A stretch of 64,000 nucleotides of DNA from the IMG/VR virus record IMGVR_UViG_3300020388_000010. One strand, 5' to 3'. Both the position numbers and the translations under genes were made by a program. Source of the stretch: a virus. Its lineage: Duplodnaviria; Caudoviricetes. The notes beneath the pieces were generated by a model. The model searched no databases, was not told the DNA's origin, and saw nothing but the letters and a program-made list of their open reading frames with translations. This document shows, piece after piece, positions 9,069-40,939 of the stretch (position 1 is the stretch's first letter; every line of letters starts with the position of its first letter).

Positions 9069-9455
9069 ATGGCTGTCTTTCAACTTCCAACTGATGGTAT
9101 CGCAGACGGTGCCATCACAACTGCTAAGATTAATGCATCAGTTAGTCTTGGTGCATCTGTTAATATTATTCTTAACGGAACAGATGGTGGAGGTTCTAAT
9201 GCTGGTGATAATTTAATCCTTGACGGTACAGATGGTGCTAGTGCTAATGCTGGTGATAAAGTTCAATATAATGATGTCCTAGATGCAAATGCCATTCCCC
9301 AATCTTTCGGACAATCAGCACAGTTTAGAGCAAACATTAAATTTTTAAATGAAACACTTACAATTCCTCAAGGAGTCAATGCAATGGCAGTCGGGCCTAT
9401 TACGGTTACTTCTGGTAATACATTGACAATAGAGGGAGATGTTGTTATACTTTAG
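9069..9455 (+). CDS. Short fibre adaptor/hub protein
   Basis: Two LDGTD...NAGD motifs; C-terminal TIP.G.NAM..GPITV..G.TLTI motif seen in marine phage fibre genes. Confidence 0.6.
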   Translation: MAVFQLPTDGIADGAITTAKINASVSLGASVNIILNGTDGGGSNAGDNLILDGTDGASANAGDKVQYNDVLDANAIPQSFGQSAQFRANIKFLNETLTIPQGVNAMAVGPITVTSGNTLTIEGDVVIL

Positions 9456-9464
9456 GTAGATTTT

Positions 9465-10079
9465 ATGGGTACATTAAAAGTAGATAATTTACAAAAAGAA
9501 GACGGAACAGCTATTATTACTGATGGTGTGATTCCAACTACAATATTAAAAAATTCTAGTGTTGGTATGGTTAAATTATTTCAAGGTAGTGCAGCTTCTG
9601 CTGCTTCATTTGAAATAAACAGTACATACATTAATTCTACTTATGACAATTATTTAATCTTTATAGATGCAACACCAGTTACTGATGCACAAACATTAAG
9701 AATGAGATTTTTACATAGTGATTCTGCTCATACTGGTAGTGATTATTTTTATGAGTGTGAAGTTCATTCAAGTTCAACACATACTTACGACCACGATGCC
9801 GCTGACCATATTAGAATGGTTTATCAAACCCCAGGCAATGCAGCTGGTGAGGGTTTAAATGTTTTTTGTACTTTGACACAAGTAAATAGTACCTCTAGAC
9901 CAACAACAGTTAAAGGTGATTATACAGTTGTGAACGATAGTGCAAGTAGTCAAGGGGGTACATTTAATGGAGGTCAAGACCTCGGAGGTAGAGCAACTGC
10001 GATAACTGGAGTTCATATTTATTTTGGTAGTGGTAATATAATTATGAATGACTTTGCAATTTATGGGATGGTAAAATAA
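9465..10079 (+). CDS. Fibre tip protein, paralogue 1 (MGTLKVDNL N-terminus)
   Basis: Shared N-terminus with the next two genes; variable beta-rich C-terminal domain. Confidence 0.65.
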   Translation: MGTLKVDNLQKEDGTAIITDGVIPTTILKNSSVGMVKLFQGSAASAASFEINSTYINSTYDNYLIFIDATPVTDAQTLRMRFLHSDSAHTGSDYFYECEVHSSSTHTYDHDAADHIRMVYQTPGNAAGEGLNVFCTLTQVNSTSRPTTVKGDYTVVNDSASSQGGTFNGGQDLGGRATAITGVHIYFGSGNIIMNDFAIYGMVK

Positions 10080-10113
10080 AATGGGTACATTAAAAGTAGA
10101 TAATTTACAAAAA
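9465..10113 (+). repeat. 33-bp exact direct repeat at the starts of two fibre-tip genes (9465-9497 and 10081-10113)
   Basis: atgggtacattaaaagtagataatttacaaaaa occurs at both positions; degenerate third copy at 10752. Confidence 0.9.
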
Positions 10114-10752
10114 AGAGATGGTACTGCACTTATCACAGATGGAGCTGCATCAACAACTTTACTTTCTCAAGCATCGTTAAGAAGTGCTGGTGTAGGTCTT
10201 ATAAAAATTAATACACAAACAGTTTCTGGTGCGGCCACAGTAAATTTTACTGATTTAGACACAACCTCTGGTTCTGCTCTTTATTCAAGTTTTAAAATTG
10301 TTATGGATAATGTTACAGCTGATTCTGATAATGCTGCTTTATTTTATGGAAGATTTGGTATTGGTGCAACACCAACATATAACACATCATCAAACTATAA
10401 TACTGTATTTGTTAATGGATTTTCAAATGTAGCAGGTTTACAACAACAAGGTGCTGGTAGTGCAGCTCAATTTTGGCTTGCGGCTAATGCTTCAAGTGGT
10501 TATTATATGCCTGGTGATACTTTTGAATTTTTAAGTGGAACAATGGATTTATTTAGAATGGGTGATTCAAATCACCCACCACAAACAAATTGGTTTTTAG
10601 GTTATCCGATATCAGGCAATGTACAATCTACTGGATTTGGTACAGCAACATTTGTTGAGAGTTCTGAAATTGTTAACGGAACAGCAGTACAATTATATAT
10701 GAGTACAGGCAACATATCTGGAACATTCACTTTATACGGAGTAACCAAATAA
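10081..10752 (+). CDS. Fibre tip protein, paralogue 2
   Basis: MGTLKVDNLQK..GTA.ITDG N-terminus; ends GNISGTFTLYG. Confidence 0.65.
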   Translation: MGTLKVDNLQKRDGTALITDGAASTTLLSQASLRSAGVGLIKINTQTVSGAATVNFTDLDTTSGSALYSSFKIVMDNVTADSDNAALFYGRFGIGATPTYNTSSNYNTVFVNGFSNVAGLQQQGAGSAAQFWLAANASSGYYMPGDTFEFLSGTMDLFRMGDSNHPPQTNWFLGYPISGNVQSTGFGTATFVESSEIVNGTAVQLYMSTGNISGTFTLYGVTK

Positions 10753-11261
10753 TGGGAACATTAACAGTAGATAATTTAAATGTAAACAGTACAGCTAGTA
10801 TTACTAGTGGAGTAGGAATAGTTCTACAACAAATAACTGGTGCTGTGGTAAAAGCAACTTTTACTTCTTCAATACCAGATGATGATACAACTCCCACAGT
10901 TTCAGAAGGAACAGAAATTTACTCACAAGCAATAACACCGAGTTCTACTTCAAATAAAATTTTTATAACTGGTTCTATTGAGGGTTCAAGTTCTGCTGCT
11001 AATGGGTGGGGTATTACTGTTTTTAGAGGAAGCACTTGTATATTAACTGTTCATCAAACTAATGCTATGGGTGGTGGTCAGCCAAATCAATGTAATATTA
11101 ATGTTTTAGATTCACCTAGTTCAACATCAGCAGTAACATATTCAATTAGAGCTGGTTGTATGGCAGGGTCTTCAGCAATTTATGTACAAAGAAGAAGTTC
11201 AGAAAAATATAATGGAACAATGGCTTTAAATTCCGTAACACTTCAAGAGATAAAAGGTTAG
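10752..11261 (+). CDS. Fibre tip protein, paralogue 3
   Basis: MGTLTVDNL N-terminus; ITPSSTSNKI and LDSPSSTSAVTY motifs shared with 12450 gene. Confidence 0.65.
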   Translation: MGTLTVDNLNVNSTASITSGVGIVLQQITGAVVKATFTSSIPDDDTTPTVSEGTEIYSQAITPSSTSNKIFITGSIEGSSSAANGWGITVFRGSTCILTVHQTNAMGGGQPNQCNINVLDSPSSTSAVTYSIRAGCMAGSSAIYVQRRSSEKYNGTMALNSVTLQEIKG

Positions 11262-11265
11262 TAAT

Positions 11266-11634
11266 ATGAATATAGCAAAATTATTAGAATACTATTGGCC
11301 TGGTTGTTTATGGGAGTTAGTGGGTAATGACCAAACTGATTATAAAAATTTAACTTGGTTAGACAAATCAACAACGAAACCAACAGAATCAGAATTATTA
11401 GCAAAAAAAGATGAGGGTGAACTTCGTGAAGCATTAGATGAAATAAGACCAATAAGAAATAGACTTTTAAGAGAAAGTGATTGGACACAAATGCCAGACA
11501 TAAGTGACTCTAGAATGGATAGTACAACTAAAGGTAAATGGCAAGTGTATAGAGAAGAATTAAGAGATTTAACAAAAGGATTAGATACTGTTGACAAAGT
11601 AAAAAAAGTTACTTGGCCAACAGAACCAAGTTAG
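11266..11634 (+). CDS. Tail fibre assembly chaperone
   Basis: RNRLL.ESDW.Q..D...W..YR.ELRDL......WP..P motif. Confidence 0.8.
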   Translation: MNIAKLLEYYWPGCLWELVGNDQTDYKNLTWLDKSTTKPTESELLAKKDEGELREALDEIRPIRNRLLRESDWTQMPDISDSRMDSTTKGKWQVYREELRDLTKGLDTVDKVKKVTWPTEPS

Positions 11635-11642
11635 GAAAATAA

Positions 11643-12440
11643 ATGGCATATATTGGAAAAGAACCTTCGTTTGGTGCATTTGAGAAAGACATCTTTACTG
11701 GTGATGGTTCAACTACACAATTTACTTTGACTCACACAGTTGCATCTGCAACATCTATGATTGTTTCTTTAGGTGGTGTTATTCAAGAGCCTGGTAGTGC
11801 ATATGATATTGCAATGGTGAGTGGTGTACAAAAAATTAATTTTGCTTCTGCTCCAGCAAACTCTGTAAGATGTTTTGTAGTTTATCTTGGTAGACAACAA
11901 ATAGTTCAAGCAAGAGCAGCCACAGATACAACTCCTACAATAGATACATTTACTGGAGGAAGTGGAACAACTGCATTTACTTTATCTAGAGTTCCTCAAA
12001 ACCCATCATCAACTGTAATTGCATTTGTGAATGGTGTGTTTCAAAAATATACAACAAACTTTTCAATCGCTGGTACAACTATAACTTTTACTTCTGCACC
12101 AGAAACATCTGCTGTCATAGTGGTAGTTCATTTATCAACAACAAACGAAGTTAATTTAGGTTCTCCAGATGATAATTCAGTAGGTACTGCAAAAATTCAA
12201 GACAACGCAGTAACAAATGCAAAAGCAGCTTTCACTTATACATCATCTTATTTTACTGGTGATGGTTCAACAACTGCATTTACAATTACTACTGGACATA
12301 CAGTAAATAGTGTTATAGTTACAGAAAATGGAGTTATGCAAAAACCAACAACCGATTATGGTGTGTCTGGTACAACCTTAACTTTTACAACTGCACCATC
12401 CAATACAGTACAAATTGGTGTTAGATATTTAGTGGTATAG
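11643..12440 (+). CDS. Fibre scaffold protein with three FTG.GSTT.FT repeat domains (MAYIG N-terminus)
   Basis: Three repeats FTGDGSTTQFTL / FTGGSGTTAFTL / FTGDGSTTAFTI, each ending near F..AP. Confidence 0.7.
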   Translation: MAYIGKEPSFGAFEKDIFTGDGSTTQFTLTHTVASATSMIVSLGGVIQEPGSAYDIAMVSGVQKINFASAPANSVRCFVVYLGRQQIVQARAATDTTPTIDTFTGGSGTTAFTLSRVPQNPSSTVIAFVNGVFQKYTTNFSIAGTTITFTSAPETSAVIVVVHLSTTNEVNLGSPDDNSVGTAKIQDNAVTNAKAAFTYTSSYFTGDGSTTAFTITTGHTVNSVIVTENGVMQKPTTDYGVSGTTLTFTTAPSNTVQIGVRYLVV

Positions 12441-12449
12441 GAAAATTAA

Positions 12450-13136
12450 ATGACTACAAGAATTACTACGGCTAATATTACAGATGGAACAATAGAAAAC
12501 ATTGATATAAAAAATGGTGATATTGATATAACATCAAAAATAACTGGTACAATTCCTAGTGCAAATTTAGGGACAATACCAGTATCAAAAGGCGGAACTG
12601 GTTTAACTTCATTAGGAAGTGCTGGACAAGCAATCAAAGTCAACAGTGGTGGAAGTGCATTAGAATTTGGTACTGCTGGTACAGTATTACAAGTTCAATC
12701 ATCATTTAAAGCTGATACAGATAGTACAACATCTACAAGTGATGTTGCGATATCTGGATTATCGTTAACCTTAACTCCAGCATCTACATCTAATAAAGTG
12801 TTAGTGCAATTTGATGTAGGTACTATGGGTAATAATTACAATGCTCATATGTTTTTTACAGTTTACAGAGATATTGCTGGTGGTGGATATAATGCTATTG
12901 GTCTAGGAACTGGTGGTAGTTCATATAATTATGGTGCTGGTTCTTATGCTGCTAATGGATATTATCATACAGTAGGTCATAATTTTTTAGACTCACCAAA
13001 CACTACATCAGAAATAACTTATAAATTATATTTTAGAGGAAGTAGTGGTTCATATACTTATTACATTAATAGAAGAAGTAGTGATGATTTATTTAGAGGG
13101 TCAACAAGTTTAATTTGTATGGAGGTAAAAGGATGA
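12450..13136 (+). CDS. Fibre tip protein
   Basis: PVSKGGTG, GQAIKVNSGGSALEFG joint, TPASTSNKVLV...LDSPNTTS.ITY tip domain. Confidence 0.7.
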   Translation: MTTRITTANITDGTIENIDIKNGDIDITSKITGTIPSANLGTIPVSKGGTGLTSLGSAGQAIKVNSGGSALEFGTAGTVLQVQSSFKADTDSTTSTSDVAISGLSLTLTPASTSNKVLVQFDVGTMGNNYNAHMFFTVYRDIAGGGYNAIGLGTGGSSYNYGAGSYAANGYYHTVGHNFLDSPNTTSEITYKLYFRGSSGSYTYYINRRSSDDLFRGSTSLICMEVKG

Positions 13137-13432
13137 GTTATACTAGACACGAAGCAATCAGAGAATTATATTCTAATGTCGTTACTGTTAGTGATAGTGC
13201 TGGTGCGTTTGATAAAGATGGAAAATTAGTTTCTGTTGATGAAGATAAAGTTAAAACAAAAATGGCAGAACTTAAAACTGCATATGATAAATTACAATAC
13301 CAAAGGGATAGAAAAGATGACTATCCAAGTATAGAAGACCAATTAGATATGCAGTATCACGATTTGATAAATGACACCACAACTTGGAAAGATGCTATTA
13401 AATCTGTCAAAGTTAAATATCCTAAGAAATAA
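13133..13432 (+). CDS. Fibre-associated chaperone-like protein
   Basis: YQRDR...YPSIEDQLDM.YHD......W...I..VK.KYPK motif; start moved to the ATGA overlap at 13133. Confidence 0.65.
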   Translation: MSYTRHEAIRELYSNVVTVSDSAGAFDKDGKLVSVDEDKVKTKMAELKTAYDKLQYQRDRKDDYPSIEDQLDMQYHDLINDTTTWKDAIKSVKVKYPKK

Positions 13433-13454
13433 TAAATAAATAAAAGGAATAAGA

Positions 13455-13622
13455 ATGGTAACTAGAATCACAAAACAATCACCAACTGGTGGTGCAAAGT
13501 TAAAAAGACCAGATGGTTCTACTTATATAGAATTACCAAAAACACCTTTTGATGCAAACAAAGAAGGTGAAACTAGGAAAATTAATGAAACAACTGGTTA
13601 CTTTGGAAAGAAGGTTTCATAA
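13455..13622 (+). CDS. 55-aa small protein beginning MVTRITKQ (not in ORF track)
   Basis: AAGGA RBS, ATG 13455, TAA 13620-13622 abutting the next ATG. Confidence 0.7.
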   Translation: MVTRITKQSPTGGAKLKRPDGSTYIELPKTPFDANKEGETRKINETTGYFGKKVS

Positions 13623-14633
13623 ATGCCAATAAGTAAAATACCCGTAGGTGCAATACAATCTGGAACGATTGGAACTTCTCAAATTGCTGATGATGCTGTC
13701 ACTACTGCAAAGATTTTAAACGATAATGTTACTTCTGCAAAAATTCCAAATGATGCAGTCGGTTCAACAGAAATTTCTTCTAATGCAGTCACTCGTGATG
13801 AGTTACAATCAGCTGCAGTAAATAATATTTCATCAGATTCTATTATTTTAAATTCTACTAATGGTACTGCTGATGCTGGTGATTTTTTAGTTTTAGATGG
13901 AACAGATAATTCTAGTACAAATGCAAATCACAGAATATTATATGATGAAACATTTAACCCATCAACATTTAATGTTAGTGGTACTGCAACAGCAGGAAAT
14001 GCTATTAAAGTGAAGTCAGGCGGTGGGTTTGAATTTGGTGCAGCTGGTGGACTGGTTTTATTAGAAACAAAAACTGTTGCTTCTGGTTCTGCAGCTAATC
14101 AACCCTTTCATTTTCAAAACATATTTTCTTCTACATATAGAAACTATAAAGTAATATACAATGTAAAAGAAACAGAAAGTTCTGCAAATGCTGGTAGTGC
14201 TGGATTGATTGTAAGATTAGGTAATGCTGGTACATTATCAACTGGTACATCATCAACTTGCAAACATTCATTAATGTATTGTCAAGGTGATGCTACTGCT
14301 GATTCTATTGTTTATGGTGATTCTGATGATATATTTGTTTTATGTCAGAACTTTAGTAGTAATGAAGATATGACTACATCTGGAGAGTGTACTTTTATGA
14401 ATATGTTAGATACTGATTTTCAAGGAAGTTGTATATCTAGTACAATGATGCACGGCGAGACAAATTCATATTATTATGAACACGGACTAAATATGATTAT
14501 AAATAAGGCAACAACTTTTACTGATATATCATTTGAAATCAAAGTTACTGGTGGAGGTGGTGGTGGCAATATGGATTCTTCCACAGCTGGATATCCAGTA
14601 TTTGGTGAAGTAAAAGTATATGGAATCATTTAG
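13623..14633 (+). CDS. Fibre protein with IADDAVTTAK repeats, acidic DAGD motif and variable tip
   Basis: 10-residue repeats, LDGTD motif, AIKVK.GGG.EFG joint; architecture shared with 34083 gene. Confidence 0.7.
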   Translation: MPISKIPVGAIQSGTIGTSQIADDAVTTAKILNDNVTSAKIPNDAVGSTEISSNAVTRDELQSAAVNNISSDSIILNSTNGTADAGDFLVLDGTDNSSTNANHRILYDETFNPSTFNVSGTATAGNAIKVKSGGGFEFGAAGGLVLLETKTVASGSAANQPFHFQNIFSSTYRNYKVIYNVKETESSANAGSAGLIVRLGNAGTLSTGTSSTCKHSLMYCQGDATADSIVYGDSDDIFVLCQNFSSNEDMTTSGECTFMNMLDTDFQGSCISSTMMHGETNSYYYEHGLNMIINKATTFTDISFEIKVTGGGGGGNMDSSTAGYPVFGEVKVYGII

Positions 14634-14642
14634 GAGATAAAA

Positions 14643-14936
14643 ATGGCATACACACATAAAATGGTTAATGGTGAAAAAGTACCTTTGACCGATTCAGAAA
14701 TAGAAGAACTTGAAGCAAGAGATGTAGAATGGGCAAAAGGTGCTTACGATAGAGCGATTGCTGGTTTAAGAATGGAAAGAGATAATAAACTTGCACAGTC
14801 AGATTGGATGGCTAACTCTGATGTGACAATGAGTTCTGATTGGAAAACTTATAGACAAGAGTTAAGAGACTTGACTAAAGGTTTAGATACTGAGGACAAA
14901 GTAAATAAAGTTACTTGGCCAAAAGAACCATCATAA
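14643..14936 (+). CDS. Tail fibre assembly chaperone
   Basis: LR.ERD..L..SDW...D......W..YRQELRDL; paralogue of 11266 gene. Confidence 0.8.
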   Translation: MAYTHKMVNGEKVPLTDSEIEELEARDVEWAKGAYDRAIAGLRMERDNKLAQSDWMANSDVTMSSDWKTYRQELRDLTKGLDTEDKVNKVTWPKEPS

Positions 14937-14964
14937 GATGGACTAAATAGTAGAAGGAAATACA

Positions 14965-16482: not shown

Positions 16483-16484
16483 GA

Positions 16485-23810: not shown

Positions 23811-23813
23811 AAT

Positions 23814-24056
23814 ATGTCAGAAATATCAGAATTGAAAGTAAAGGATAAAGACCATTTAGTAAGAGATACTTACTCTGGTGCAATATTAAATACAGATGAA
23901 AGTGCATTTAATAAAATTAGAAAAAGAAGAATGGAAGCACAAAGACAAAGAGATGAATTAAGAAACGCAGTTCGTGAGATAAATACTATTAAGTCAGAAA
24001 TGCACGAAATGAAAAGTATGATGAAACAAATGTTAGAGAAGAGCAATGGCAGATAG
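23814..24056 (+). CDS. Hypothetical coiled-coil protein
   Basis: LVRD..SGAILNTD followed by a heptad-like helix; directly after VrlC-like gene. Confidence 0.7.
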   Translation: MSEISELKVKDKDHLVRDTYSGAILNTDESAFNKIRKRRMEAQRQRDELRNAVREINTIKSEMHEMKSMMKQMLEKSNGR

Positions 24057-24387
24057 AAGCGTATTAGCATCAAATTCGTTTGAAACTTTTAGAACGACAT
24101 TTAACTCAACTGCGAGTGATGTTGGTGATATCGCAAACTTACTAGCTGCAACTGGTACTATTGCATCTTCAACAGATGTAGTAGAAGCGATAGTAGCACT
24201 AAATGCTGTTGCCTTTGATGCAACTGCAAATATTTCTTTTAGTGGTAATAATACATTTTCTGGTAGTAGCACTTTTGCTGGTGTAACATTAAGTTCTGGT
24301 GCATTAACATTTGCTGATGGAACTTCACAATCAACAGCTGCAACAACACAAGGGTTTGCGATTGCAGTCGCAGTTGCACTTGGATAA
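24046..24387 (+). CDS. Short fibre/adaptor ending GFAIAVAVALG
   Basis: FE.FR..FN N-terminal motif and hydrophobic C-terminal peptide. Confidence 0.6.
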   Translation: MADRSVLASNSFETFRTTFNSTASDVGDIANLLAATGTIASSTDVVEAIVALNAVAFDATANISFSGNNTFSGSSTFAGVTLSSGALTFADGTSQSTAATTQGFAIAVAVALG

Positions 24388-24406
24388 ATAATAGAGAGAA
24401 ATACAT

Positions 24407-25003
24407 ATGGCAAATAATTTTAAAAATTCATTCGTAAGTGTAACTACTGCTGGAGAATTTTATCAGTCTGATGCATCTGATTCTTTGACAGGCCCACAAA
24501 CAGTTTATACTGCAAACAATGGTTCTGGAGTAAATTCAATTCTTATTGAGTTAGATGCCGCCAATACTGGTGGTAGTGCAATAACAGCAACTGCATATCT
24601 TCAAGACACTAGTGCAACATTAGGTACAATTTCAAGTGTGGTATCAACAAGTGATACTGCAACGGTTACTTGTGGTACTGCACACGGATTACAAACTGGT
24701 ATGTATGTTAATGTAACTGGTTCTACAACAAACTATGTTAATGGAATTTACAAGATTACAAAAACTGGTGCAACTACATTTACATATGCACAAAATACAA
24801 GTGCATCAAATGGAACTGCAGCTGGTACGATTGTAATTTATAAAGCATTTCATATTGTAAAAGATGCACCTATTCCACCACAATCAACTTTAAAAATTGT
24901 GTCTGGACAAAAAGTAGTTTTAAATAATGACGATAAAGTTTTAGTTTATGGTAGTGCAGCTACATTAGATGTTGTTGCATCAATACTTGAAGATGTAACT
25001 TAA
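24407..25003 (+). CDS. Virion structural protein (MANNFKN type) with an inserted HGL..G beta domain
   Basis: MANNFKN start, KVVL...D and ASILE end. Confidence 0.6.
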   Translation: MANNFKNSFVSVTTAGEFYQSDASDSLTGPQTVYTANNGSGVNSILIELDAANTGGSAITATAYLQDTSATLGTISSVVSTSDTATVTCGTAHGLQTGMYVNVTGSTTNYVNGIYKITKTGATTFTYAQNTSASNGTAAGTIVIYKAFHIVKDAPIPPQSTLKIVSGQKVVLNNDDKVLVYGSAATLDVVASILEDVT

Positions 25004-25015
25004 TGGAGTTTGTAA

Positions 25016-25816
25016 ATGGCATATATAGGTAGTCCATTTTTAAATATTCCAGCAAACACATTTGCAAAAGAAGACTTTGTAGGTTCTGATGCTGGTACAA
25101 ATAATAGCATTGCAAATTCAGTTGTTCTTTCACGAGAAGTGCCTGGACTTAACGCATCTAATGTAGAAGTATTTGTAAACAATATTAGACAAGAACCAGA
25201 TGTTGCATATTTTATCAAAGATGATGCAAACGGTGTTCCAAAGATTTTAGAATTTTCTGAAGCATTAGCTGGAAGTGATGAAGTTTATATTATTCATAAA
25301 GGTTTAGGGCCTGGTACAGAAAAAAGTGCTATTGCAGCTGGTTCTATTACTGCATCTCTTTTAAACGACACTTTAAAAACATTTACACTAGATACTTTCA
25401 CTGGTGATAATTCAACAACTGCATTTGTAACATCATCAACAATTTCATCTGCAAATTCTTTATTAGTAACGATTGATGGTATTGTTCAAAAACCGTCAAC
25501 AAACTATTCTACTTCTGGTGCAACTGTTACATTTACATCTGCCCCAGCTGCATCTGCTGAAATAGAAGTTAGAGATTTAGGAATTAAAACATCAGTAAGA
25601 AGAGGAACTGGTTTTAATTTAGACACACTTACTGTAAGTGGCAGTTCAACAACCACTATGACATTATCACACGAAGTTTTAGTGAATGATGTATTTATTT
25701 TTATCAATGGAGTTTGTCAAATTCCAACATCTGCTTATTCTGTAAGTGGTACAACCGTAACATTTGCATCTGCATTATCTGACGGTGATGTTGTAGTTGC
25801 AAGATACCAGAGATAA
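25016..25816 (+). CDS. Second MAYIG scaffold protein with three repeat domains
   Basis: MAYIG start; V.VN..RQEP / V.IDG.VQ.P / FINGV.Q.P repeats. Confidence 0.7.
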   Translation: MAYIGSPFLNIPANTFAKEDFVGSDAGTNNSIANSVVLSREVPGLNASNVEVFVNNIRQEPDVAYFIKDDANGVPKILEFSEALAGSDEVYIIHKGLGPGTEKSAIAAGSITASLLNDTLKTFTLDTFTGDNSTTAFVTSSTISSANSLLVTIDGIVQKPSTNYSTSGATVTFTSAPAASAEIEVRDLGIKTSVRRGTGFNLDTLTVSGSSTTTMTLSHEVLVNDVFIFINGVCQIPTSAYSVSGTTVTFASALSDGDVVVARYQR

Positions 25817-25818
25817 AT

Positions 25819-27504
25819 ATGCCATTAACAACTATCAAATCATCAAACATAAAAGACGCTGAAGTAAAAAATGCAGACATTAGTCCAACTGCTGGTATTG
25901 CAGAATCTAAAGTTGCTGGATTAGATGCAGCTCAAATTAGTACAAACGCATTTAATATTGGTGTCTTAGGTTTTAAGATGGCAGTAAGTGAAGGACTTAC
26001 TGTTTTCAATTTAATTGATGGTATTGTTGATGAATTCAACAATGAAAGTGGTATAGACACATCAGAAAATGTAACTTCTAGTTATGATTCTAGTTCAGAT
26101 TTCTATTCAAATTTAGATGGCCCTAATCCTATTCCAACTCCACAAGCATCTTTGACTCAAATTACATCAAGTGGGCCTGGTACATATAGTGTTGAACCCA
26201 CAACAACTGTCGTTAAAGTTTTTGCTGTTGGTGGTGGAGGTGCTGGTGGTGGTTCTGGGCCTGGTAATGGAGGCGGTGGCGGCGGAGGTGCTGGTGGTGT
26301 ATTTTTAGATGCTGATGTTCCAGTAACTGGTGGTGCTGGTGTTGCAGTAAATGTTGGTGCTGGTGGTGAGGGTCATTTTGTACCTAATCATCCATCTTAT
26401 CCAGCAGTTGGTTCTGCACATCCTTCAAGACCTTCAGAGTGGGTAACTTACTCACCATTCTCTGCTGAGCCTGGTACTCACTCAAAACCTGGCGCTGATA
26501 CAACTTTTGGCCCTACTGTTTTAGCAGAAGGTGGTGGAGGTGGTGGTCACGGATATCAAGGAACAAGTGAGGGTGCATCTGACCCAGCATTTCCTGGCCA
26601 AGAATTAGTAGATGGATTGCCTGGTGGTTCTGGTGGTGGTGCTGGATATTCTGAAGGTACAATAGGTGAGGGAGAAACTGGAGAAAGTAGACACCCTGCT
26701 GGAGATTTAGCACAACAAGGATTTGACGGTGGTATATTTTATGGTTCTGGGCCAGGTTATGGTGGTGGTGGCGGTGGTGGTGCTGGTCAACTAGGTGAAG
26801 CTGCAAGTGGTTCAGAAGGTGGAGAAGGTGGTAATGGCATACAAGTCGGCCCTGCTAATCCACAATTAAATTGGATGCCTGCTGGTTACGGTTTTGATAC
26901 TGGTGAATATATTGCTGGTGGAGGAGCTGGAGGAGAATATGCCCCTGGCGCTTTAAATAATGGTGGTTTAGGTGGTGGTGGTGATGCAAATCATTTTCCA
27001 CAAGCAAGTGGTATAAGTGAACCAGCTGTAGAAACAAGAGGTGAAGATGGTGATGCAAACTCTGGTGGAGGTGGTGGTTCATTTGGTGGTGGGCCAGGTG
27101 GTAGCACTCCAGATAAAAGAGGTGGTCTCGGTGGTAGTGGACAAATAGTTGTATTAGAAATGGAGTCATTAGCCACATCTGCAAGTAGCACATTAGTATC
27201 AGATACATTTACTGCAAACTCAACACCAACTAAAGCAAGAATAGTTTTATTTGCAGAAATAAGTGATGATTTAAATACAGATGTGTCAGTTTCTGCAACC
27301 AGAGATAACACTAACTACGATGCAATCACATTAACAGATACTGGTTATGTAAGTGGTAGTAGTGGTACAAAAGTATATTCTGGTTCTACTACATTAACTG
27401 GAGCTGCACCTGGCCAACCTCAAGTACAAGTCCGTTGGAAAATTGTTGGAAGTAATCAAACTGCTGAAAATAAAATACACGGTGTTGCGTTGCAGTGGAA
27501 ATAA
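25819..27504 (+). CDS. Glycine-rich adhesin-like protein, paralogue 1
   Basis: Conserved FNIGVLGFK...DEF N-block and SDTFTA...HGV.LQW C-block flank polyglycine tracts. Confidence 0.75.
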   Translation: MPLTTIKSSNIKDAEVKNADISPTAGIAESKVAGLDAAQISTNAFNIGVLGFKMAVSEGLTVFNLIDGIVDEFNNESGIDTSENVTSSYDSSSDFYSNLDGPNPIPTPQASLTQITSSGPGTYSVEPTTTVVKVFAVGGGGAGGGSGPGNGGGGGGGAGGVFLDADVPVTGGAGVAVNVGAGGEGHFVPNHPSYPAVGSAHPSRPSEWVTYSPFSAEPGTHSKPGADTTFGPTVLAEGGGGGGHGYQGTSEGASDPAFPGQELVDGLPGGSGGGAGYSEGTIGEGETGESRHPAGDLAQQGFDGGIFYGSGPGYGGGGGGGAGQLGEAASGSEGGEGGNGIQVGPANPQLNWMPAGYGFDTGEYIAGGGAGGEYAPGALNNGGLGGGGDANHFPQASGISEPAVETRGEDGDANSGGGGGSFGGGPGGSTPDKRGGLGGSGQIVVLEMESLATSASSTLVSDTFTANSTPTKARIVLFAEISDDLNTDVSVSATRDNTNYDAITLTDTGYVSGSSGTKVYSGSTTLTGAAPGQPQVQVRWKIVGSNQTAENKIHGVALQWK

Positions 27505-27507
27505 ATT

Positions 27508-29277
27508 ATGCCAAATCCCTTAACTGGTTTAACTCAGATAAAATCAACTGACATCACAGATGGAACTATCACTGATGCAGACATATCACCTAGTGCAAGT
27601 ATCACATCTACAAAAACTGAAATTGATACCGATTTAGCAGACACAAATACACCTTTCAATATTGGTGTATTAGGATTTAAACACGCAGTCAATGAAGGTT
27701 TGACAATATTTAATTTAGTAGATGGTATTGTTGATGAGTTTAATAGTGAAGGTGGTATAGATACTTCAGAAAATTCAAACGCAGTATATAATTCTTCTTC
27801 AGATTTTTATGCAAATACAAATCCAAATCAACCTTTACCCTCTCCATCAATACAAAGAACATCTATTACTGATACTGGTTCTGGAACTTACTCAGTAGAA
27901 CCTACAACATCAGCAGTTGATATTTTAGTTATTGGAGGAGGTGGTTCTGGTGGTGCTGGTGGATATAATAATACTGCTGGTGGTGGTGGAGGTGCTGGTG
28001 GTTTAATATTTTATGAAGATTATCCAGTAACTGGTGGAACAAGTATTCCAGTATCAGTAGGTGCTGGTGGTAGAAGTGCTGGAGGAGGTGGCCCTCTTGG
28101 AGTTGCATCATCTGGTTATGAACCATTTCAACCACAAAGATTTACTTGGGCTTACGACCCAATGCCAGAAACTCCCGTTCAACAACTTTATTCGCCAGGC
28201 GAAAAAGGTACAGATTCAGTTTTTGGTTCAGCTCCAGCGTTAGTTCTAACTGCTGAGGGTGGTGGTGCTGGTGGTGGATATTATCACGAAGGTTATGTTG
28301 GAAGTTTAGAACACACACAAATACAAGGTGGTAGTGCTGGTGGAACTGGTTCTATAAATAATGCCCCAGTAGTTCCAGCTGCTGAACACGCATCAACTCA
28401 AACAACAAATCATCCAGTTCCTGGCTTATCAAATGACCCTTTGCCTGGAACTCCTATAAATGCACGAGGTGCTTTTGGTAGTGCTGGTGGATTAGGTTTT
28501 CATACTGGCCCACAAAGTCAACTTGCAAACTCTGGTGGCGGTGGAGGAGCAGGAGCAGAAGGTGGAGATGTAACATCACCTCAAGGACAAAGAGGTGGTG
28601 CTGGTGGTATAGGTTTAAATTATAATATTGCAGATGGTTCAACACCAGTAGGTTATGCTGGCGGCGGTGGTGGAGGTGGTGCTGATACTGCACCTCCTAG
28701 TGAAAGTGTTCCTTATGGTGGTGGAGTAGGACAAGTAACAACTAATCAAGCATCTGCACCTTGGGCTCCAACACCAAGTCCATATAGTCCTTTCGTTACA
28801 GGCACAGAGGGTTTCTTTGGAACTGATGCAGTTGTAAATACTGGTGGTGGTTCTGGTGGTGGTCATATGGAAGGCCCTGCTCCGGCAAGCACTGGTGTAA
28901 GTGGTATTGCTGGTTCTGGTATTATTGTTGTTGCAGAAAGTAAAGGTGATATTGCTAACTCTAGTATGACTTTAATATCTGATACATTTACTGCAAGTTC
29001 AACACCAAGTAAAGCAAGACTTGTATTGTTTGCAGAAATAGGAGATGATTTAAATACCGATATCAACGCATCAGTAACAAGAGATAATACAACATTTAAT
29101 GCAGTCACACTAACAGACGAAGGGTTTCAAGCAGGAAGTTCTGGTATAAAAATATTTACTGGTAGTACACCTTTAACTGGTACTGCAAGTCCTCAAGTAC
29201 AACTTAGATGGAAAATTGTTGGAAGTAACCAAGTTAATACAAATAAAATTCACGGTGTAGCCCTCCAGTGGGCATAG
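27508..29277 (+). CDS. Glycine-rich adhesin-like protein, paralogue 2
   Basis: Same N- and C-blocks and glycine tracts. Confidence 0.75.
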   Translation: MPNPLTGLTQIKSTDITDGTITDADISPSASITSTKTEIDTDLADTNTPFNIGVLGFKHAVNEGLTIFNLVDGIVDEFNSEGGIDTSENSNAVYNSSSDFYANTNPNQPLPSPSIQRTSITDTGSGTYSVEPTTSAVDILVIGGGGSGGAGGYNNTAGGGGGAGGLIFYEDYPVTGGTSIPVSVGAGGRSAGGGGPLGVASSGYEPFQPQRFTWAYDPMPETPVQQLYSPGEKGTDSVFGSAPALVLTAEGGGAGGGYYHEGYVGSLEHTQIQGGSAGGTGSINNAPVVPAAEHASTQTTNHPVPGLSNDPLPGTPINARGAFGSAGGLGFHTGPQSQLANSGGGGGAGAEGGDVTSPQGQRGGAGGIGLNYNIADGSTPVGYAGGGGGGGADTAPPSESVPYGGGVGQVTTNQASAPWAPTPSPYSPFVTGTEGFFGTDAVVNTGGGSGGGHMEGPAPASTGVSGIAGSGIIVVAESKGDIANSSMTLISDTFTASSTPSKARLVLFAEIGDDLNTDINASVTRDNTTFNAVTLTDEGFQAGSSGIKIFTGSTPLTGTASPQVQLRWKIVGSNQVNTNKIHGVALQWA

Positions 29278-29803: not shown

Positions 29804-29811
29804 TGTATAAT
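29784..29811 (+). promoter_or_regulatory. Sigma70-like promoter TTGACA-N16-TATAAT
   Basis: Perfect hexamers just upstream of the ATG at 29831. Confidence 0.7.
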
Positions 29812-29830
29812 TATTAAAAGGTGAAAAATT

Positions 29831-31252: not shown

Positions 31253-31271
31253 GTTATAAAAAGGATTAGTT

Positions 31272-32090: not shown

Positions 32091-32093
32091 GTT

Positions 32094-34063: not shown

Positions 34064-34082
34064 ATAAGAGTAGGAGAATAAA

Positions 34083-34946
34083 GTGCCAATAAGAACATTA
34101 CCAAGTAGAGCTATTGCAGATGCATCAATACAGGCTGTTGATATTGCAAACTCTAGTATATCAAAAACAAAAATAGATGCAGATACACGATTAGGTCTGC
34201 AAAACGATTCAATTATATTAGATGGAACAGATGGCGCTGGTGCAAACAAGGGCGACTTTTTATCATTAAATGGTACAGATGGTTCTAGTACAAATGCAGA
34301 TGATAGAATACTTTTTGACGAAACTTTTATTGATAAAGTAAACTTATTTAACATAAACACATTGGGTTCAAGTGGACAAGCTCTTAAAGTTAATGATGCT
34401 GGAAATGATTTTACATTTGGTTCTGCTGGTACTAATGTTAAAATTACAGAAACAGATGTTACAGGCAGTGTTTCTGAAGTAATATTTGATAATACAGTAA
34501 TGACTGGTTATACTAGATTTAAAATCGTAGTTCATAATCTTACATTTTCAACAACAGCAGATTTAAGAATGGCAGATTCACCAGATAATGGTTCAACTGT
34601 ATCATTTACTGGTTATTATGGTTCTCACTATTCACAGTTAGGTTCTTCATCACACGCAGTTGGTTCTGATACTGATACAAACTATTATGATTTTGCTGGT
34701 TGGAATTTTAAAGCAAATATAGGAAATTATCTTGAGTTTGATTGTGTAAATTTTGGTAGGTCAGATACTAATGATTACAAAAAATATATAGTTAATTGGA
34801 TTCATTATAATAACAATAATAATCATTATGGTGTTATAAATTACTTTACAAGTTCATTAGCATCTGCAATGAATTGGATAAGATTTTATCCATCAAGTGG
34901 TACAATAGATGAGGGAAAATTTATTGTTTATGGTGTAAATGAATAA
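34083..34946 (+). CDS. Fibre protein inserted between gp15 and gp16
   Basis: GTG start with AGGAG RBS; LDGTD motifs, GQALKVN joint, tip ending G.FIVYG. Confidence 0.7.
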   Translation: MPIRTLPSRAIADASIQAVDIANSSISKTKIDADTRLGLQNDSIILDGTDGAGANKGDFLSLNGTDGSSTNADDRILFDETFIDKVNLFNINTLGSSGQALKVNDAGNDFTFGSAGTNVKITETDVTGSVSEVIFDNTVMTGYTRFKIVVHNLTFSTTADLRMADSPDNGSTVSFTGYYGSHYSQLGSSSHAVGSDTDTNYYDFAGWNFKANIGNYLEFDCVNFGRSDTNDYKKYIVNWIHYNNNNNHYGVINYFTSSLASAMNWIRFYPSSGTIDEGKFIVYGVNE

Positions 34947-35335: not shown

Positions 35336-35340
35336 GTAAA

Positions 35341-37239: not shown

Positions 37240-39149
37240 CAAAGTTAGAGAATCAAAATTTAAGTAATGACGCTATTGGAAGTGGTGAAATAAATACTGG
37301 TTCAGTTGATAGCTCTAAGATAGGTGCAGAAGTAAAAAACGAAGACATCTCTCCTAGTGCAAATATTTCAGCAACTAAGTTAGCACTACCTGGCCCACCA
37401 TCACAATTTGTTCGTGGTGATGGTTCATTTGGTGCTATTGATACAACTGGTATTAATGAAAATGCATTTAATATTGGTGTGTTAGGTTTCAAGATGGCAG
37501 TTAATGATGGACTCACAATATTTAATTTAAAAGATGGTGTAGTAGATGAATTTCACGATGAAAGTGGAATAGATACTGCTGAAAATACAAATGCAGCTTA
37601 CGATTCTACTTCAGATTTTTATAGTAATCAAGGTACAAATGTTGACTTACCTTCTCCACAAATAGGTAGAACATCTATCACTTCTACTGGTTCTGGAACA
37701 TATTCTGTTGAACCCACTATTACTGCAGTTGATGTGTTAATTATCGGTGGTGGAGGAGGAGCTGGTACTGGTGGTTATAACAATACTTCTGGTGGCGGTG
37801 GTGGTGCTGGTGGTTTAATATTTTATGAAGATTATCCAGTTACTGGTGGTGGTAGTATTCCAGTATCAGTAGGTGCTGGTGGCAGAGGTGGTGGTGGTGC
37901 ATCTTCATCTATTGCTGGATATCTTGGTGGTTCACCTGGCCCATATGAAACTGCGTTTGATAATGCAACTGCGATTAATGAAGCAAAAACATTTAATTTT
38001 TACAATCCAGCAGAACCAGCACCTCATCAATTTTTTTATTCGCCAGGTGAAAAAGGAACGGACTCTGTTTTTGGTGCAGCTCCAGCATTAGTTTTAACTG
38101 CTGAAGGTGGTGGTAGAGGTGGTGGATATGGTCACACGAGTTATATTGTATCTTTTGAAGATGCAACAATACAAGGTGGTAGTGCTGGTGGAGTTGGTTC
38201 ATATACTTCAGAAGATAATTCTGAAGCTGGAGCTGCAGAACACACATCTACTCAAGTATCAAATCATCCAGTTCCTGGCTTGTCAAACGACCCTTTACCA
38301 GGCACACCAATAAATGCACGAGGAGCTTTTGGAAGTGCTGGTGGTGTAGCAAGTGGAACTGCAGATAACACTACTCACGGAACATCTGGTGGGGGCGGTG
38401 GTGCTGGTACTTCTGGTGGTGATGGTACTGATTCACCAGAAACTGGTGGTGCTGGTGGTGAGGGTTTATTGTACAATGTTGCAGATGGTTCAACACCAGT
38501 AGGATATGCTGGTGGTGGTGGAGGTGGTGGTTCTGATACTGCACCTCCAAATGAAAGTGTACCTTTTGGTGGTGGTATTGGACAACTAACAACAAATAAC
38601 GAGTCAACGCCTTGGCTACAACCAATCGCTGCACTTGGGCCTGAATCTGGTGGTAATCCAGTTGATGCATATGGAAGTACAGAATCTTATCCAGGCGGTG
38701 ATGGAACTGCAAATCGTGGTGCTGGTGGAGGAGCTGGTATCACTCAAGGAGCATCGCCAACTGGTGTGGGTATTGGTGGTAATGGTGGCTCTGGTGTTAT
38801 AATAGTTACAGAAAGTAGATATAATGTTTCTAATACAAGTATGACTTTAATATCCGATACATTTACTGCAAGTTCAACACCAACTACAGCTAGAATAGTA
38901 GTCTTTGCAGAACTGCCTGATGGTCTTTCTGATTTTACTATAAGTGCAACAAGAGATAATAGTACATTTAATGCGATAACTTTAACAGATGAGGGTTTTG
39001 AAGCAGGAAGTTCTGGTATAAAAATATTTACTGGTTCAACTCCTTTAACTGGTTCAGCAAGTCCACAAGTGCAACTTAGATGGAAAATAGTAGGTTCATC
39101 TTTAAGTGGTGCAAATAAAATTCACGGAGTATCATTACAATGGGAATAA
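37230..39149 (+). CDS. Glycine-rich adhesin-like protein, paralogue 4
   Basis: Same blocks; middle closely related to paralogue 2. Confidence 0.75.
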   Translation: MGITKLENQNLSNDAIGSGEINTGSVDSSKIGAEVKNEDISPSANISATKLALPGPPSQFVRGDGSFGAIDTTGINENAFNIGVLGFKMAVNDGLTIFNLKDGVVDEFHDESGIDTAENTNAAYDSTSDFYSNQGTNVDLPSPQIGRTSITSTGSGTYSVEPTITAVDVLIIGGGGGAGTGGYNNTSGGGGGAGGLIFYEDYPVTGGGSIPVSVGAGGRGGGGASSSIAGYLGGSPGPYETAFDNATAINEAKTFNFYNPAEPAPHQFFYSPGEKGTDSVFGAAPALVLTAEGGGRGGGYGHTSYIVSFEDATIQGGSAGGVGSYTSEDNSEAGAAEHTSTQVSNHPVPGLSNDPLPGTPINARGAFGSAGGVASGTADNTTHGTSGGGGGAGTSGGDGTDSPETGGAGGEGLLYNVADGSTPVGYAGGGGGGGSDTAPPNESVPFGGGIGQLTTNNESTPWLQPIAALGPESGGNPVDAYGSTESYPGGDGTANRGAGGGAGITQGASPTGVGIGGNGGSGVIIVTESRYNVSNTSMTLISDTFTASSTPTTARIVVFAELPDGLSDFTISATRDNSTFNAITLTDEGFEAGSSGIKIFTGSTPLTGSASPQVQLRWKIVGSSLSGANKIHGVSLQWE

Positions 39150-40939
39150 CAAAAGTAAATAAAAATCTTATTGGTGATAGTGCATTAGATAGTAATAAAA
39201 TTGCAGATGGTAGTATTGGTGCAGATGAGATATTAGACAATACCATTATCAATGCAGATGTATCACCACAAGCAAGTATTGCATTTTCAAAATTAAGTTT
39301 GCCTGGCAGTTCGTCAGATTTATTAAATGGTGCTGGTGGATTTCAAGTTGCAAATGTAGCACAAACAGATACAAATACTTTTAATATTGGTTTATTAGGG
39401 TTTAAGATGGCAGTCGCAGAAGGACTCACAATATTTAATTTAAAAGATGGTGTTGTGGATGAGTTTAATGATGAGTCTGGTATAGATACTGCCGAAAATT
39501 CTAATGTATCATATGATGATTCTTCAGATTTTTACTCTGGTGGTTCTGGTTTTAATAACTCTACTCCACCAACTCAAAATATATTTTCATTTACAGCAAA
39601 TGGGCCTCACACATATACTGTTGAGTCTGGTGTTACAAATGTTAATGTTTTAGTTGTTGGAGGTGGTGGAGGTGGAGGCTCTGGTGGTTATAATGCTGTT
39701 AAAGGTGGTGGTGCTGGTGCTGGTGGTTTAATCTACTATCCAAATTATCCAGTAACGCCTGGTGGTACAGTTGCAGTAGTGGTTGGTGCTGGTGGAGAAG
39801 GTGCTGGATATAATCCTCCAGCGCCTGGTTCAACACCTTACACTCCTACTGCAAGACCAGATGGTCGTAATGGAACTGGCGAATTCGGTGGTTATGAACA
39901 CCCACAATATTCATACCCAATGGCATACACATATTATTCGCCTGGACAAACTGGTACAGATTCTTCTTTCGGGCCTCTTATAGGTGAAGGTGGAGGTGCT
40001 GGAGGTGGTTATCTAACTTCTGGTTCGCATCCATATATGGGTGGTGTATCTGGTGAAACTTATCACGAAGGTGGTTCTGGTGGTGGTGGTGGTGCTGGGC
40101 CTGGGCCATATATGGGGCCTGGTGGAGAAGGTAAACAAGATGAAAATCATCCAATTCCATTGACTCCACAAATTTTACCAGTAAATTCTATTGGAAGTTT
40201 TGGAAATGATGGTGGTGTAAATCAACCAGATGCTGGGAATGAACTAGCAACAGCTGGTGGTGGTGGAGCTGGTGGTGTTGGTGGAGATGCAGAAGGCCCT
40301 ATCGGTGGAGAGGGTGGTAATGGTTTACTTTATAATATTGCAGATGGTACTACATCAGTAGGTTATGCTGGTGGTGGTGCTGGTGCTGGTTTAGGCGAAT
40401 TTCCAGAGGGTACTTCAGTACCTTTTGGTGGTGGAGATACAAACACCACCCCATTAGTACAACCAAATTGGTTTCCTGGCTTGCCTGGTGCTGTAAATAG
40501 TGGTGGAGGTGGAGCTGGTGCAAGAAATATTAATCCTTCCACTCCTGCTGGTGGTGCTGTTGGAGGAGATGGTGGGCCTGGTGTTGTTATTGTTAAGGAA
40601 ATACAAGGTACTATATCAGATACATCAACAACCCTAGTTTCAGATACATTTACTGCAAGTTCAACTCCGACTAAAGCAAGAATAGTTGTTTTTGCAGAAA
40701 TTAATAGTACATTAAATTCCGAATTAACTGCATCTGCAACTAGAGATAATACAACTTTTAATGCGATAACTTTAACAGACACTGGGTATGTGTCTGGTTC
40801 TTCTGGAACTAAAATATTCACTGGTAGTACACCTTTGACTGGTACTGCAAGTCCTCAAGTTCAAGTTCGTTGGAAAATAGTTGGTTCTGGATTATCTCAT
40901 ATTAATACTATTCACGGTGTTTCACTTCAATGGGCATAG
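39140..40939 (+). CDS. Glycine-rich adhesin-like protein, paralogue 5
   Basis: Same blocks; 10-nt overlaps on both sides. Confidence 0.75.
   Translation: MGITKVNKNLIGDSALDSNKIADGSIGADEILDNTIINADVSPQASIAFSKLSLPGSSSDLLNGAGGFQVANVAQTDTNTFNIGLLGFKMAVAEGLTIFNLKDGVVDEFNDESGIDTAENSNVSYDDSSDFYSGGSGFNNSTPPTQNIFSFTANGPHTYTVESGVTNVNVLVVGGGGGGGSGGYNAVKGGGAGAGGLIYYPNYPVTPGGTVAVVVGAGGEGAGYNPPAPGSTPYTPTARPDGRNGTGEFGGYEHPQYSYPMAYTYYSPGQTGTDSSFGPLIGEGGGAGGGYLTSGSHPYMGGVSGETYHEGGSGGGGGAGPGPYMGPGGEGKQDENHPIPLTPQILPVNSIGSFGNDGGVNQPDAGNELATAGGGGAGGVGGDAEGPIGGEGGNGLLYNIADGTTSVGYAGGGAGAGLGEFPEGTSVPFGGGDTNTTPLVQPNWFPGLPGAVNSGGGGAGARNINPSTPAGGAVGGDGGPGVVIVKEIQGTISDTSTTLVSDTFTASSTPTKARIVVFAEINSTLNSELTASATRDNTTFNAITLTDTGYVSGSSGTKIFTGSTPLTGTASPQVQVRWKIVGSGLSHINTIHGVSLQWA

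Follow-up and report, generated by a model that had tools for sequence, protein, structure and literature searches.

The 64,000-nt stretch of viral DNA in IMG/VR record IMGVR_UViG_3300020388_000010 (the window) carries, between positions 9069 and 40939, a set of small tail-fibre genes, and the best explanation of the observations presented below is that the window encodes a modular, multivalent receptor-binding apparatus. Exchangeable parts make up its 11 or 12 small fibre or tip proteins: a short segment for attachment at the N-terminus, a shaft repeat of ~11 residues, a conserved joint and one of three head classes; three head-specific chaperones are encoded with them. Their identity as fibre proteins is supported by PHROG tail-fibre matches for genes 9069, 11643, 12450, 13623 and 25016 and by the Phage_tail_APC chaperones (Table 1; genes are named by their start coordinate within the window, and fibre genes were counted within the window only). 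Several of these receptor-binding proteins have conserved N-terminal attachment parts and exchangeable distal parts and adjoin an adaptor gene, and we consider it probable, from sequence comparisons and structure models, that such adaptors branch the fibres into several clusters per baseplate. A single hierarchical tree that takes in all ~20 genes, as put forward in the initial annotation, is very unlikely because the cassettes are dispersed over three or four places, move independently and hold a number of fibres per adaptor that varies between near-identical phages. Nor do the genes of the window support the further part of that annotation, that the system stands in for T4-style single long fibres.

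The identity of TerL, together with a set of T4-like core genes (gp9/gp10-like, gp8-like, gp13, gp14, gp15 and TerS; Table 1), places the window in the lineage of Methylophilales phage Melnitz and the pelagimyophages, as the late structural module of a marine T4-like myophage that is uncultured. The plus strand carries all long open reading frames (ORFs) from 4.5 to 42.6 kb. No near-identical phage was found in GenBank, where megablast of positions 9069-25816 against phages returned nothing; close relatives are numerous in IMG/VR, the nearest record (G001, 47 kb) carries the same two adaptor genes, and the motifs discussed below recur in 60+ related marine phage contigs and in Melnitz. The fibre-type genes fall into three or four clusters (9069-14936, 24046-29277, 34083 and 35341-40939), between which lie the gp8-like wedge gene, the gene for a 2441-aa protein, two 2OG-Fe(II) oxygenase genes, gp13/14/15-like genes and TerS; the span 9069-40939 is not one contiguous system. 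Melnitz has a 9069-like hub-plus-tips cassette at the position of 34083, between gp15 and TerS, which also speaks against one tree. At the position of 35341-40939 it has one gene (_198).

A fundamental question is what could gather such small fibres into clusters. The candidate adaptors are the products of 11643 and 25016, both of which begin with MAYIG in translation (hereafter MAYIG1 and MAYIG2). The two proteins align end to end (Table 1) and again when offset by one domain (BLASTP E 5e-19), and their internal domain pairs score 88-131 against 37 ± 7 for shuffled controls. The AlphaFold2 model of MAYIG1 (31 homologues; pLDDT 78.8) likewise has β-sandwich domains at residues 12-84, 94-167 and 197-265, so that the earlier description of two scaffolds with three repeat domains each is borne out. 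Structure alignment with VIA-align matches these domains to XD2/XD3 of CBA120 TSP4 (7rfv; Z 9.7, rmsd 1.6 Å over 64 residues, 27% identity) and to the N-terminal domain of T7 gp17 (7boz_b; Z 9.1, rmsd 2.1 Å over 66 residues), with further fold matches to 9efk_AE (Z 10.3), 8dsp_C (Z 8.9) and 8i4m_M; the matches extend over all three model domains. Residues 181-335 of TSP4 (7rej_A, 7rfo_C) align with two domains in succession, and Foldseek matches MAYIG1 to the N-terminal part of CBA120 TSP4 with a probability of 0.99-1.0. According to the model, MAYIG1 is thus composed of β-sandwiches of ~65-75 residues that superpose on solved members of the T7 gp17-N and gp10 XD2-XD3 class, and it holds three of them in tandem in one chain, where a branching-adaptor layout takes at least two.

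Metagenomes contain at least 4681 homologues similar in length to MAYIG1, a very large family; most of those listed carry a precomputed PF03906 match, and these matches, given without their strength, reach homologues down to 35-45% identity. Inspection of longer relatives (P-numbers denote longer or variant homologous proteins) reveals tandem modules in two settings, either as the N-terminal part of long fibres that bear lectin or S74 domains (P0188, P0199, P0236, P0240) or at the C-terminus of proteins that open with a gp9/10 N-domain, which is the layout of gp10 (P0185, P0198). In Melnitz _175 and _179 a single module is fused straight to a fibre body. Across these architectures the module appears to serve both as anchor and as platform, and a protein that consists solely of three modules is therefore best read, given its modelled fold, as an adaptor. 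A comparison of charge and isoelectric point (pI) among the MAYIG modules was uninformative. Separately, a start of the form MAYIGKEP.VGNFQ.CDAISVVNGQAAYT[LM] is very common on short marine IMG/VR contigs (L016-L080; L-numbers denote IMG/VR loci or contigs), where it heads proteins of 250-410 aa that are merely ~30% identical to MAYIG1 and that may be tail fibres of other phage groups sharing the anchor module.

The N-termini of the fibres form tight families, namely MGTL[KT]VDNL, MTT[KR][IV]..NI.DG, MPLTTIKSSNIKD, MVTRITK and MPISKI, whose occurrence was compared with the adaptor encoded upstream. Behind MAYIG1 stand MTT[KR][IV]..NI.DG genes (9 locus counts) or else, directly, the MVTRITK/MPISKI pair; behind MAYIG2, the MPLTTIK-type start MPLTTIKSSNIKD (14 locus counts, window included) or MSRTRIK, MVTRIT or MAISKIT; behind YIGV-type adaptors, MA[ST][NK].K genes; and behind adaptors ending ...ALAIALG, MANTFKN (10). 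In all five mapped relatives with a locus that extends into the 9069 cassette, gene 9069 is followed by three MG[TI]L[KT]VD genes; its Melnitz homologue _193 is followed by tips _194 and _195 and a chaperone. The bodies that carry the MTT start are of four unrelated kinds: one with a TP.STSNK head, one resembling 9069 and two rich in glycine. Moreover, a glycine-rich body 70-77% identical to 25819 has an MTTKIT start behind MAYIG1 (L010-L013) and an MPLTTIK start behind MAYIG2, and the two versions diverge only within the first ~40 residues. These comparisons indicate that start types follow the upstream adaptor even after the body has been swapped. The initial annotation had grouped nine genes under a loosely similar M..[TS][KR][IVL] peptide; the tighter families are real, and four of the nine genes fit the peptide strictly, as do two unrelated ORFs in the window. 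One plug shared by all nine is not upheld, since the motif is too loose and mostly represents the first unit of the common ~11-residue shaft repeat, as seen when MPISKIPVGAI is set beside the internal VTSAKIPNDAV of 13623.

Among the distal parts of the fibres, the YG heads of 9465/10081 proved homologous to those of 13623/34083 (166 columns aligned by hhalign; probability 99.4%, E 4.6e-22), and head classes are therefore truly spread over different N-terminal types, here MGTL tips and MPISKI-type fibres. The three classes first described, namely this YG-ending class, the TP.STSNK/LDSP class of 10752 and 12450, and five glycine-rich heads, were all borne out by homology, and the G.A[IL]KV...FG.AG joint is present in 12450, 13623 and 34083. 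All five glycine-rich genes are paralogous (BLASTP E 1e-99 to 0); Gly_rich_2 scores above its cut-off of 24.3 also in 37230 (26.7) and 39140 (37.4), and 25819 and 35341 join by paralogy only. The 10752 head is possibly TNF/Pgp3-like by sequence, with 23.8 bits (E 4e-5), just under the cut-off of 25, against PF05475 (Pgp3 C-terminal, a TNF-like trimeric head). Phages with core genes >95% identical differ in cassette content in a mosaic fashion. In L002, L004 and L012 the head of an MGTL-type gene shows 80-82% identity to the 12450 head, and a 13115-type gene comes next; the 10752-type head keeps the 11266 chaperone adjacent despite altered gene order (L002, L006, L007), and in L003-L007 the head of 13623 is replaced while residues 1-212 are retained. 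Such patterns indicate that heads move between N-terminal types together with their chaperones.

A further conserved neighbourhood is the three-part junction in front of MAYIG2, where the end of 24046 precedes the MANNFKN gene 24407, which in turn precedes MAYIG; the terminal motifs originally read here and elsewhere in the span are all present in the translations. The junction was surveyed in 47 IMG/VR loci retrieved with 24407 and scored wherever neighbouring ORFs were intact. Wherever readable, MAN(N/T)F(K/V)N genes have a 5′ neighbour with the C-terminus ...[FL].[IV]A..[VI]ALG and a 3′ neighbour with an M.YIG start, with a truncated ORF in L102 as the sole upstream exception. The pattern persists down to 30% identity of the middle protein, and of two distant loci L129 keeps the upstream half (...AMALALG) and L128 the downstream half (MSYIRG). 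Many of these genomes, as well as Melnitz, have a second copy whose upstream partner is a two-module YIG protein ending ...DDATALAIALG; in Melnitz, AIALG-type ends stand 5′ of MAN.FKN in _168 and _173. The ordered-neighbour motifs are thus conserved far beyond the window genome.

What is the protein in the middle? MAN.FKN proteins mostly stand alone at ~110 or ~200 aa, the shorter members having no inserted barrel, and no fusions to their neighbours occur among the best 150 of 2759 profile matches, which are stand-alone proteins or giant proteins that match the inserted barrel only. P0344 and P0388, considered as fusions, were rejected as internal duplications. Structure matches of the 24407 model (VIA-align) include the KHP40 trimeric cement protein (Z 9.2), and the inserted barrel (residues ~72-150; 24620-24870) resembles the E1 FCCH domain and residues 255-340 of the phi92 endosialidase (Z 9.8, 26% identity); Foldseek returned chiefly E1 FCCH-like matches to the barrel and was uninformative on the core. 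Among GenBank phages the family occurs in Melnitz only. In the ESM Atlas 24407 and 34083 match unnamed viral clusters only, and sequence searches of 24046, 13623 and 39140 against the PDB gave chance-level matches only. No described counterpart of the ...AIALG / MAN.FKN / YIG junction was found. In Melnitz-like phages one YIG adaptor has an ...ALAIALG end of its own, behind which lie another MAN.FKN and another YIG protein. We raise the tentative possibility that the AIALG end, the MAN.FKN jelly roll and the YIG module together make up a fibre joint not described before, which could be used repeatedly to chain XD-type adaptors in series and would give abundant ocean myophages multi-level trees with about a dozen different heads, all from very small genes. 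As a separate observation, giant metagenomic proteins as long as 5797 aa, most likely virion proteins, contain as many as 19 copies of the inserted-barrel module.

In the first cassette, the 9069 product is a candidate hub for the three MGTL tips, and the 8149 product, encoded just before the fibre span, is a likely socket on the wedge. The motif [IL][IL]L[DN]GTDG...AGD.[IL] is common to 9069 (9150-9260), 13623 (13900-13960) and 34083 (34200-34300) and is also found, by BLASTP cross-hits, in the C-terminal extension of the gp14-like neck protein (32800-32860) and in a 1179-aa baseplate protein (4572-8111). The tip genes 9465 and 10081 are identical over their first 33 nt and match at 51 of their first 60 nt, wobble positions included, which suggests recent gene conversion or a recombination border for cassette exchange.

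We hypothesize that the MAYIG proteins trimerise and that the first module, with its conserved N-terminus, would be the anchor, in MAYIG2 via the 24046-24407 junction, while modules 2-3 would be platforms that bind the N-termini of the fibres encoded directly behind, as gp10 does with gp11/gp12 and CBA120 TSP4 with TSP1/TSP2. The products of 24046 and 24407 with MAYIG2 would constitute a serial joint, and the MGTL tips would dock on 9069 or on the gp9-like 8149 protein. The outcome would be several branched fibre clusters per baseplate, not one tree, and recombination at conserved 5′ ends would exchange heads and whole cassettes between phages. Adaptor-plus-plug docking of this kind is plausible by analogy, in line with the known branched receptor-binding complexes of T4 gp10, CBA120 and RaK2.

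Several observations weigh against adaptor-based branching. The gathering score of PF03906 (Phage_T7_tail, 25.2) is not reached by 25016 (16.7 bits), and 11643 has no match at E ≤ 0.1; kinship of the MAYIG proteins to gp17-N is therefore placed at the level of fold only (25016 also scores 19.2 bits against Pfam DUF4183, below the cut-off). MAYIG1 has no ...AIALG / MAN.FKN pair 5′ of it in the window. The C-terminal domain of 9069 is similar to the far C-terminal end of a giant fibre family, a likeness that would suit a tip no less than a hub. For 24407 the jelly-roll matches are generic (Z 8-10); the correlation between adaptor and start is confounded by shared descent and synteny. Behind the three-module MAYIG1, the number of MTT genes ranges from 0 to 2 (plus the MVTRITK/MPISKI pair) and differs between near-identical phages, and one socket per scaffold domain is not supported. 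The scaffold reading itself is supported by the fold that the MAYIG proteins have in common with known docking and anchor modules (T7 gp17-N, gp10 and TSP4 XD2/XD3). The literature searched on this lineage and on T4-like cyanophages, the Melnitz paper included, holds no proteomics or imaging of these fibres.

Could each fibre instead attach alone, at a site of its own on the neck, the baseplate or the 2441-aa protein? In that case the MAYIG proteins would be short fibres or decorations whose gp17-N-like module is nothing but their own anchor, and shared starts would reflect shared virion sites and not docking on the product of a neighbouring gene. Such modules are N-terminal anchors in T7-like phages (7boz_b, 8dsp_C, 8i4m_M) and in the Melnitz fibres _175 and _179, and independent attachment would also suit cassettes that lie apart and move independently and fibre counts that vary behind the adaptors. 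However, this explanation is rather unlikely given a three-module-only protein that has no receptor-binding part and a start type that changes with the upstream adaptor on the same body, and the C-terminal tandem modules of gp10-like proteins together with the documented platform role of XD2/XD3 point to docking. Another hypothesis, which we regard as unlikely, is that fibres with the same start (three MGTL; one or two MTT) vie for one socket class, such that virions would be a stochastic mixture and host range a matter of bet-hedging; it is compatible with adaptor docking and incompatible with a defined hierarchy. It would account for the near identity of the first 9-20 residues of the three MGTL genes, including the 5′ match of 9465 and 10081 described above, and for MTT-type gene numbers that differ between near-identical phages. 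However, each MGTL position keeps its own signature after residue 9 across relatives (QKRDGTALITDG in the second, MGTLTVDNLN in the third), and the presence of three MGTL genes in every one of the five mapped relatives fits three distinct sites.

It is also conceivable, and quite improbable in our judgement, that the conserved starts are recombination or translation-initiation signals and not docking peptides, with motifs that persist since cassette exchange needs homologous border DNA. The nucleotide identity of the 9465 and 10081 5′ ends, wobble included, the mosaic cassettes among phages with near-identical core genes, and the end of 13455, which encodes the ribosome-binding site of 13623, are all of the kind expected from such signals. 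In contrast, the MTT and MAN.FKN starts and the ...AIALG end are kept as amino-acid sequence even at an overall identity of 30-60%, at which the DNA is little alike, and the ...AIALG codons lie 20 nt before the next start, 5′ of the ribosome-binding-site position.

Other features of the fibre genes and their surroundings (Table 1) concern gene arrangement. The stop of 13455 abuts the start of 13623 in frame (TCA TAA ATG), and 14 relatives keep this ORF abutting an MPISKI or MAISKI gene, where ATG comes directly after TAA or TAG. Since the stop is TAA or TAG and the last 13455 codons, GGAAAGAAGG, form the ribosome-binding site of 13623, stop-codon read-through that would join the two was rejected; the more likely reading is that a tiny basic partner protein is tightly coupled in translation to 13623. 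The true start of 13115 is probably an internal ATG that gives MSYTRHE.... Glycine-rich genes end ...LQW[AE] and overlap the ATG GGN ATA start of the next gene (37230, 39140 and 40930, the last being TerL). Two 2OG-Fe(II) oxygenase genes, 29831 and 30463 (PHROG 61 and 81), and a basic 170-aa ORF, 29291, sit inside the structural module (29291-31233), directly 3′ of two glycine-rich fibre genes and 5′ of gp13. The T4 late-promoter motif TATAAATA is not enriched (10 observed against 10 expected). Mu-like switching was dropped as a candidate: a repeat scan found inverted pairs of only 24-41 nt that are 71-83% complementary, none of them at cassette flanks, and no recombinase gene was seen in the region.

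Table 1. Fibre, adaptor, chaperone and core structural genes of the window, with the support for each assignment.
Feature	Position	Strand	Support or remarks
gp9/gp10-like baseplate-periphery fibre connector	8149..9060	+	Pfam T4_gp9_10_N (PF07880) 28.7 bits, cut-off 25; Phage_depo_C; PHROG 677 (baseplate wedge tail fiber connector) E 7e-18
Small fibre-like protein, 128 aa, shaft repeat, two LDGTDG..AGD motifs, C-terminal beta domain	9069..9455	+	PHROG 5342 tail-fibre C-terminus E 1e-5
Tip 1, MGTLKVDNL start, YG-class head	9465..10079	+	translation, BLASTP, hhalign
Tip 2, MGTLKVDNL start, YG-class head	10081..10752	+	93% identical orthologue in L002, L004
Tip 3, MGTLTVDNL start, TP.STSNK/LDSP head	10752..11261	+	BLASTP to 12450 E 2.5e-10
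Tail-fibre assembly chaperone	11266..11634	+	Pfam Phage_tail_APC (PF16778) 49.3 bits, cut-off 26.6; PHROG 4912
MAYIG1, putative adaptor, three tandem gp17-N / XD2-XD3-like beta-sandwich modules, floppy linkers	11643..12440	+	AlphaFold2, structure alignment, PHROG tail-fibre match
Fibre, MTTRIT start, shaft repeats, G.AIKV..FG.AG joint, TP.STSNK/LDSP head	12450..13136	+	PHROG 6942 tail fiber E 4e-16
Probable head-specific chaperone of 12450-type head	13115..13432	+	PHROG 9114; moves with the head
55-aa basic protein, MVTRITK start, pI 9.8	13455..13622	+	94-100% conserved in close relatives; 69% in L015
Fibre, MPISKI start, ~five shaft repeats, joint, YG-class head	13623..14633	+	PHROG 892/21412 tail fiber; BLASTP to 34083 E 2e-23
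Tail-fibre assembly chaperone	14643..14936	+	Pfam Phage_tail_APC 55.3 bits, cut-off 26.6
gp8-like wedge subunit	14965	+	PHROG/Pfam scan
2441-aa conserved protein	16485	+	PHROG/Pfam scans
Small fibre segment, first junction member	24046..24387	+	C-terminus GFAIAVAVALG, ends ...TTQGFAIAVAVALG
MANNFKN protein, small jelly-roll core with inserted beta-barrel, proposed joint	24407..25003	+	AlphaFold2 pLDDT 83.4, pTM 0.78
MAYIG2, putative adaptor, three tandem gp17-N / XD-like modules	25016..25816	+	BLASTP to MAYIG1 full length E 6e-31; PHROG tail-fibre match; 45% identical to Melnitz _170
Glycine-rich fibre 1, start MPLTTIKSSNIKD, behind MAYIG2	25819..27504	+	paralogue by BLASTP
Glycine-rich fibre 2	27508..29277	+	Pfam Gly_rich_2 (PF21722) 34.0 bits, cut-off 24.3
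Neck proteins gp13/gp14	31272, 32094	+	PHROG/Pfam scan
Sheath stabiliser gp15	33263	+	PHROG/Pfam scan
Fibre, MPIRTL start, LDGTDG motifs, joint, YG-class head; between gp15 and TerS	34083..34946	+	BLASTP, hhalign
TerS	34946	+	PHROG/Pfam scan
Three glycine-rich fibre paralogues between TerS and TerL	35341-37239, 37230-39149, 39140-40939	+	BLASTP E 1e-113 to 0
TerL	40930-42570	+	75% identical to Melnitz; ~67% to pelagimyophages HTVC008M and Mosig

This lineage infects the most abundant streamlined marine heterotrophs (SAR11, OM43), and the Melnitz paper annotated the whole region as hypothetical proteins. If adaptor-based branching is correct, a branched, cassette-swappable set of about a dozen heads would be a mechanism for host-range breadth and for shifts between host clades, and the start type, adaptor, head and chaperone would make up a parts list for reading host specificity from viromes. 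It would also extend gp10/XD branching from enterobacterial phages to ocean T4-like phages, with stand-alone adaptors and possibly a new joint protein family.

How does this arrangement compare with known systems? The adaptors of SP6 and K1-5 are stand-alone proteins that hold two spikes. In the knee of the T4 long fibre (gp34-gp35-gp36), a small protein is encoded between two fibre segments in assembly order, as in 24046, 24407 and 25016; this is an analogy only, and 24407 is modelled as a small jelly roll with an inserted barrel. The T7 gp17 N-terminal domain has the same fold as the MAYIG modules and a conserved N-terminus that serves as virion anchor, whereas the MAYIG proteins hold three tandem copies in place of one, belong to a myophage baseplate context and do not reach PF03906 by sequence.

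XD-module branched receptor-binding complexes are established for T4 gp10, G7C and CBA120. In T4 gp10 and CBA120 TSP4, XD2/XD3 modules are trimeric platforms that hold gp11/gp12 and TSP1/TSP2, respectively (PMC8825819). T4 gp10 (with gp11 and gp12) and gp9 are similar to the system described here in module fold, in the gp10 layout of some MAYIG relatives, in the T4_gp9_10_N match of 8149 and in the T4-like nature of the phage; in contrast, the MAYIG proteins have no gp9/10 N-domain, no gp11 or gp12 homologue was detected in the window, and the partners are many and variable. TSP1-4 of CBA120 (Ackermannviridae), with the AD-XD1-XD2-XD3 region at the N-terminus of TSP4, share the tandem β-jellyroll modules of the same fold and an adaptor gene that adjoins several receptor-binding genes with conserved N-terminal parts. 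The putative window adaptor differs as a separate 265-aa protein with neither a receptor-binding body nor the AD triple β-helix, and the proteins proposed to dock on it are small fibres, short in their N-terminal segments and with heads that are glycine-rich or jelly-roll-like, instead of β-helix depolymerase spikes with D1/D2 heads. No Pfam or PHROG match to a β-helix tailspike depolymerase with D1/D2 head domains was found in any tip of the window, where the heads are of the small YG class, the TP.STSNK class or Gly_rich_2.

For RaK2, a hierarchical model has been proposed in which a primary fibre protein with several XD modules carries secondary adaptors and these carry further proteins, with nine proteins per fibre (PMC10253068), against ~11 heads proposed here. 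RaK2 and phiK64-1 (Alcyoneusvirus) share the hierarchical model; RaK2, however, is a jumbo Klebsiella phage with depolymerase tips and with adaptors inside large fibre proteins, whereas the window has small genes, stand-alone adaptors and a hierarchy read from gene order only. The principle of branching is therefore already known. What is new is that T4-like ocean phages infecting streamlined heterotrophs would use it, that the putative adaptors are free-standing proteins of three modules, that the fibres are very small and have short N-terminal segments, that the heads are not depolymerases, and that an ...AIALG / MAN.FKN / YIG junction is conserved.

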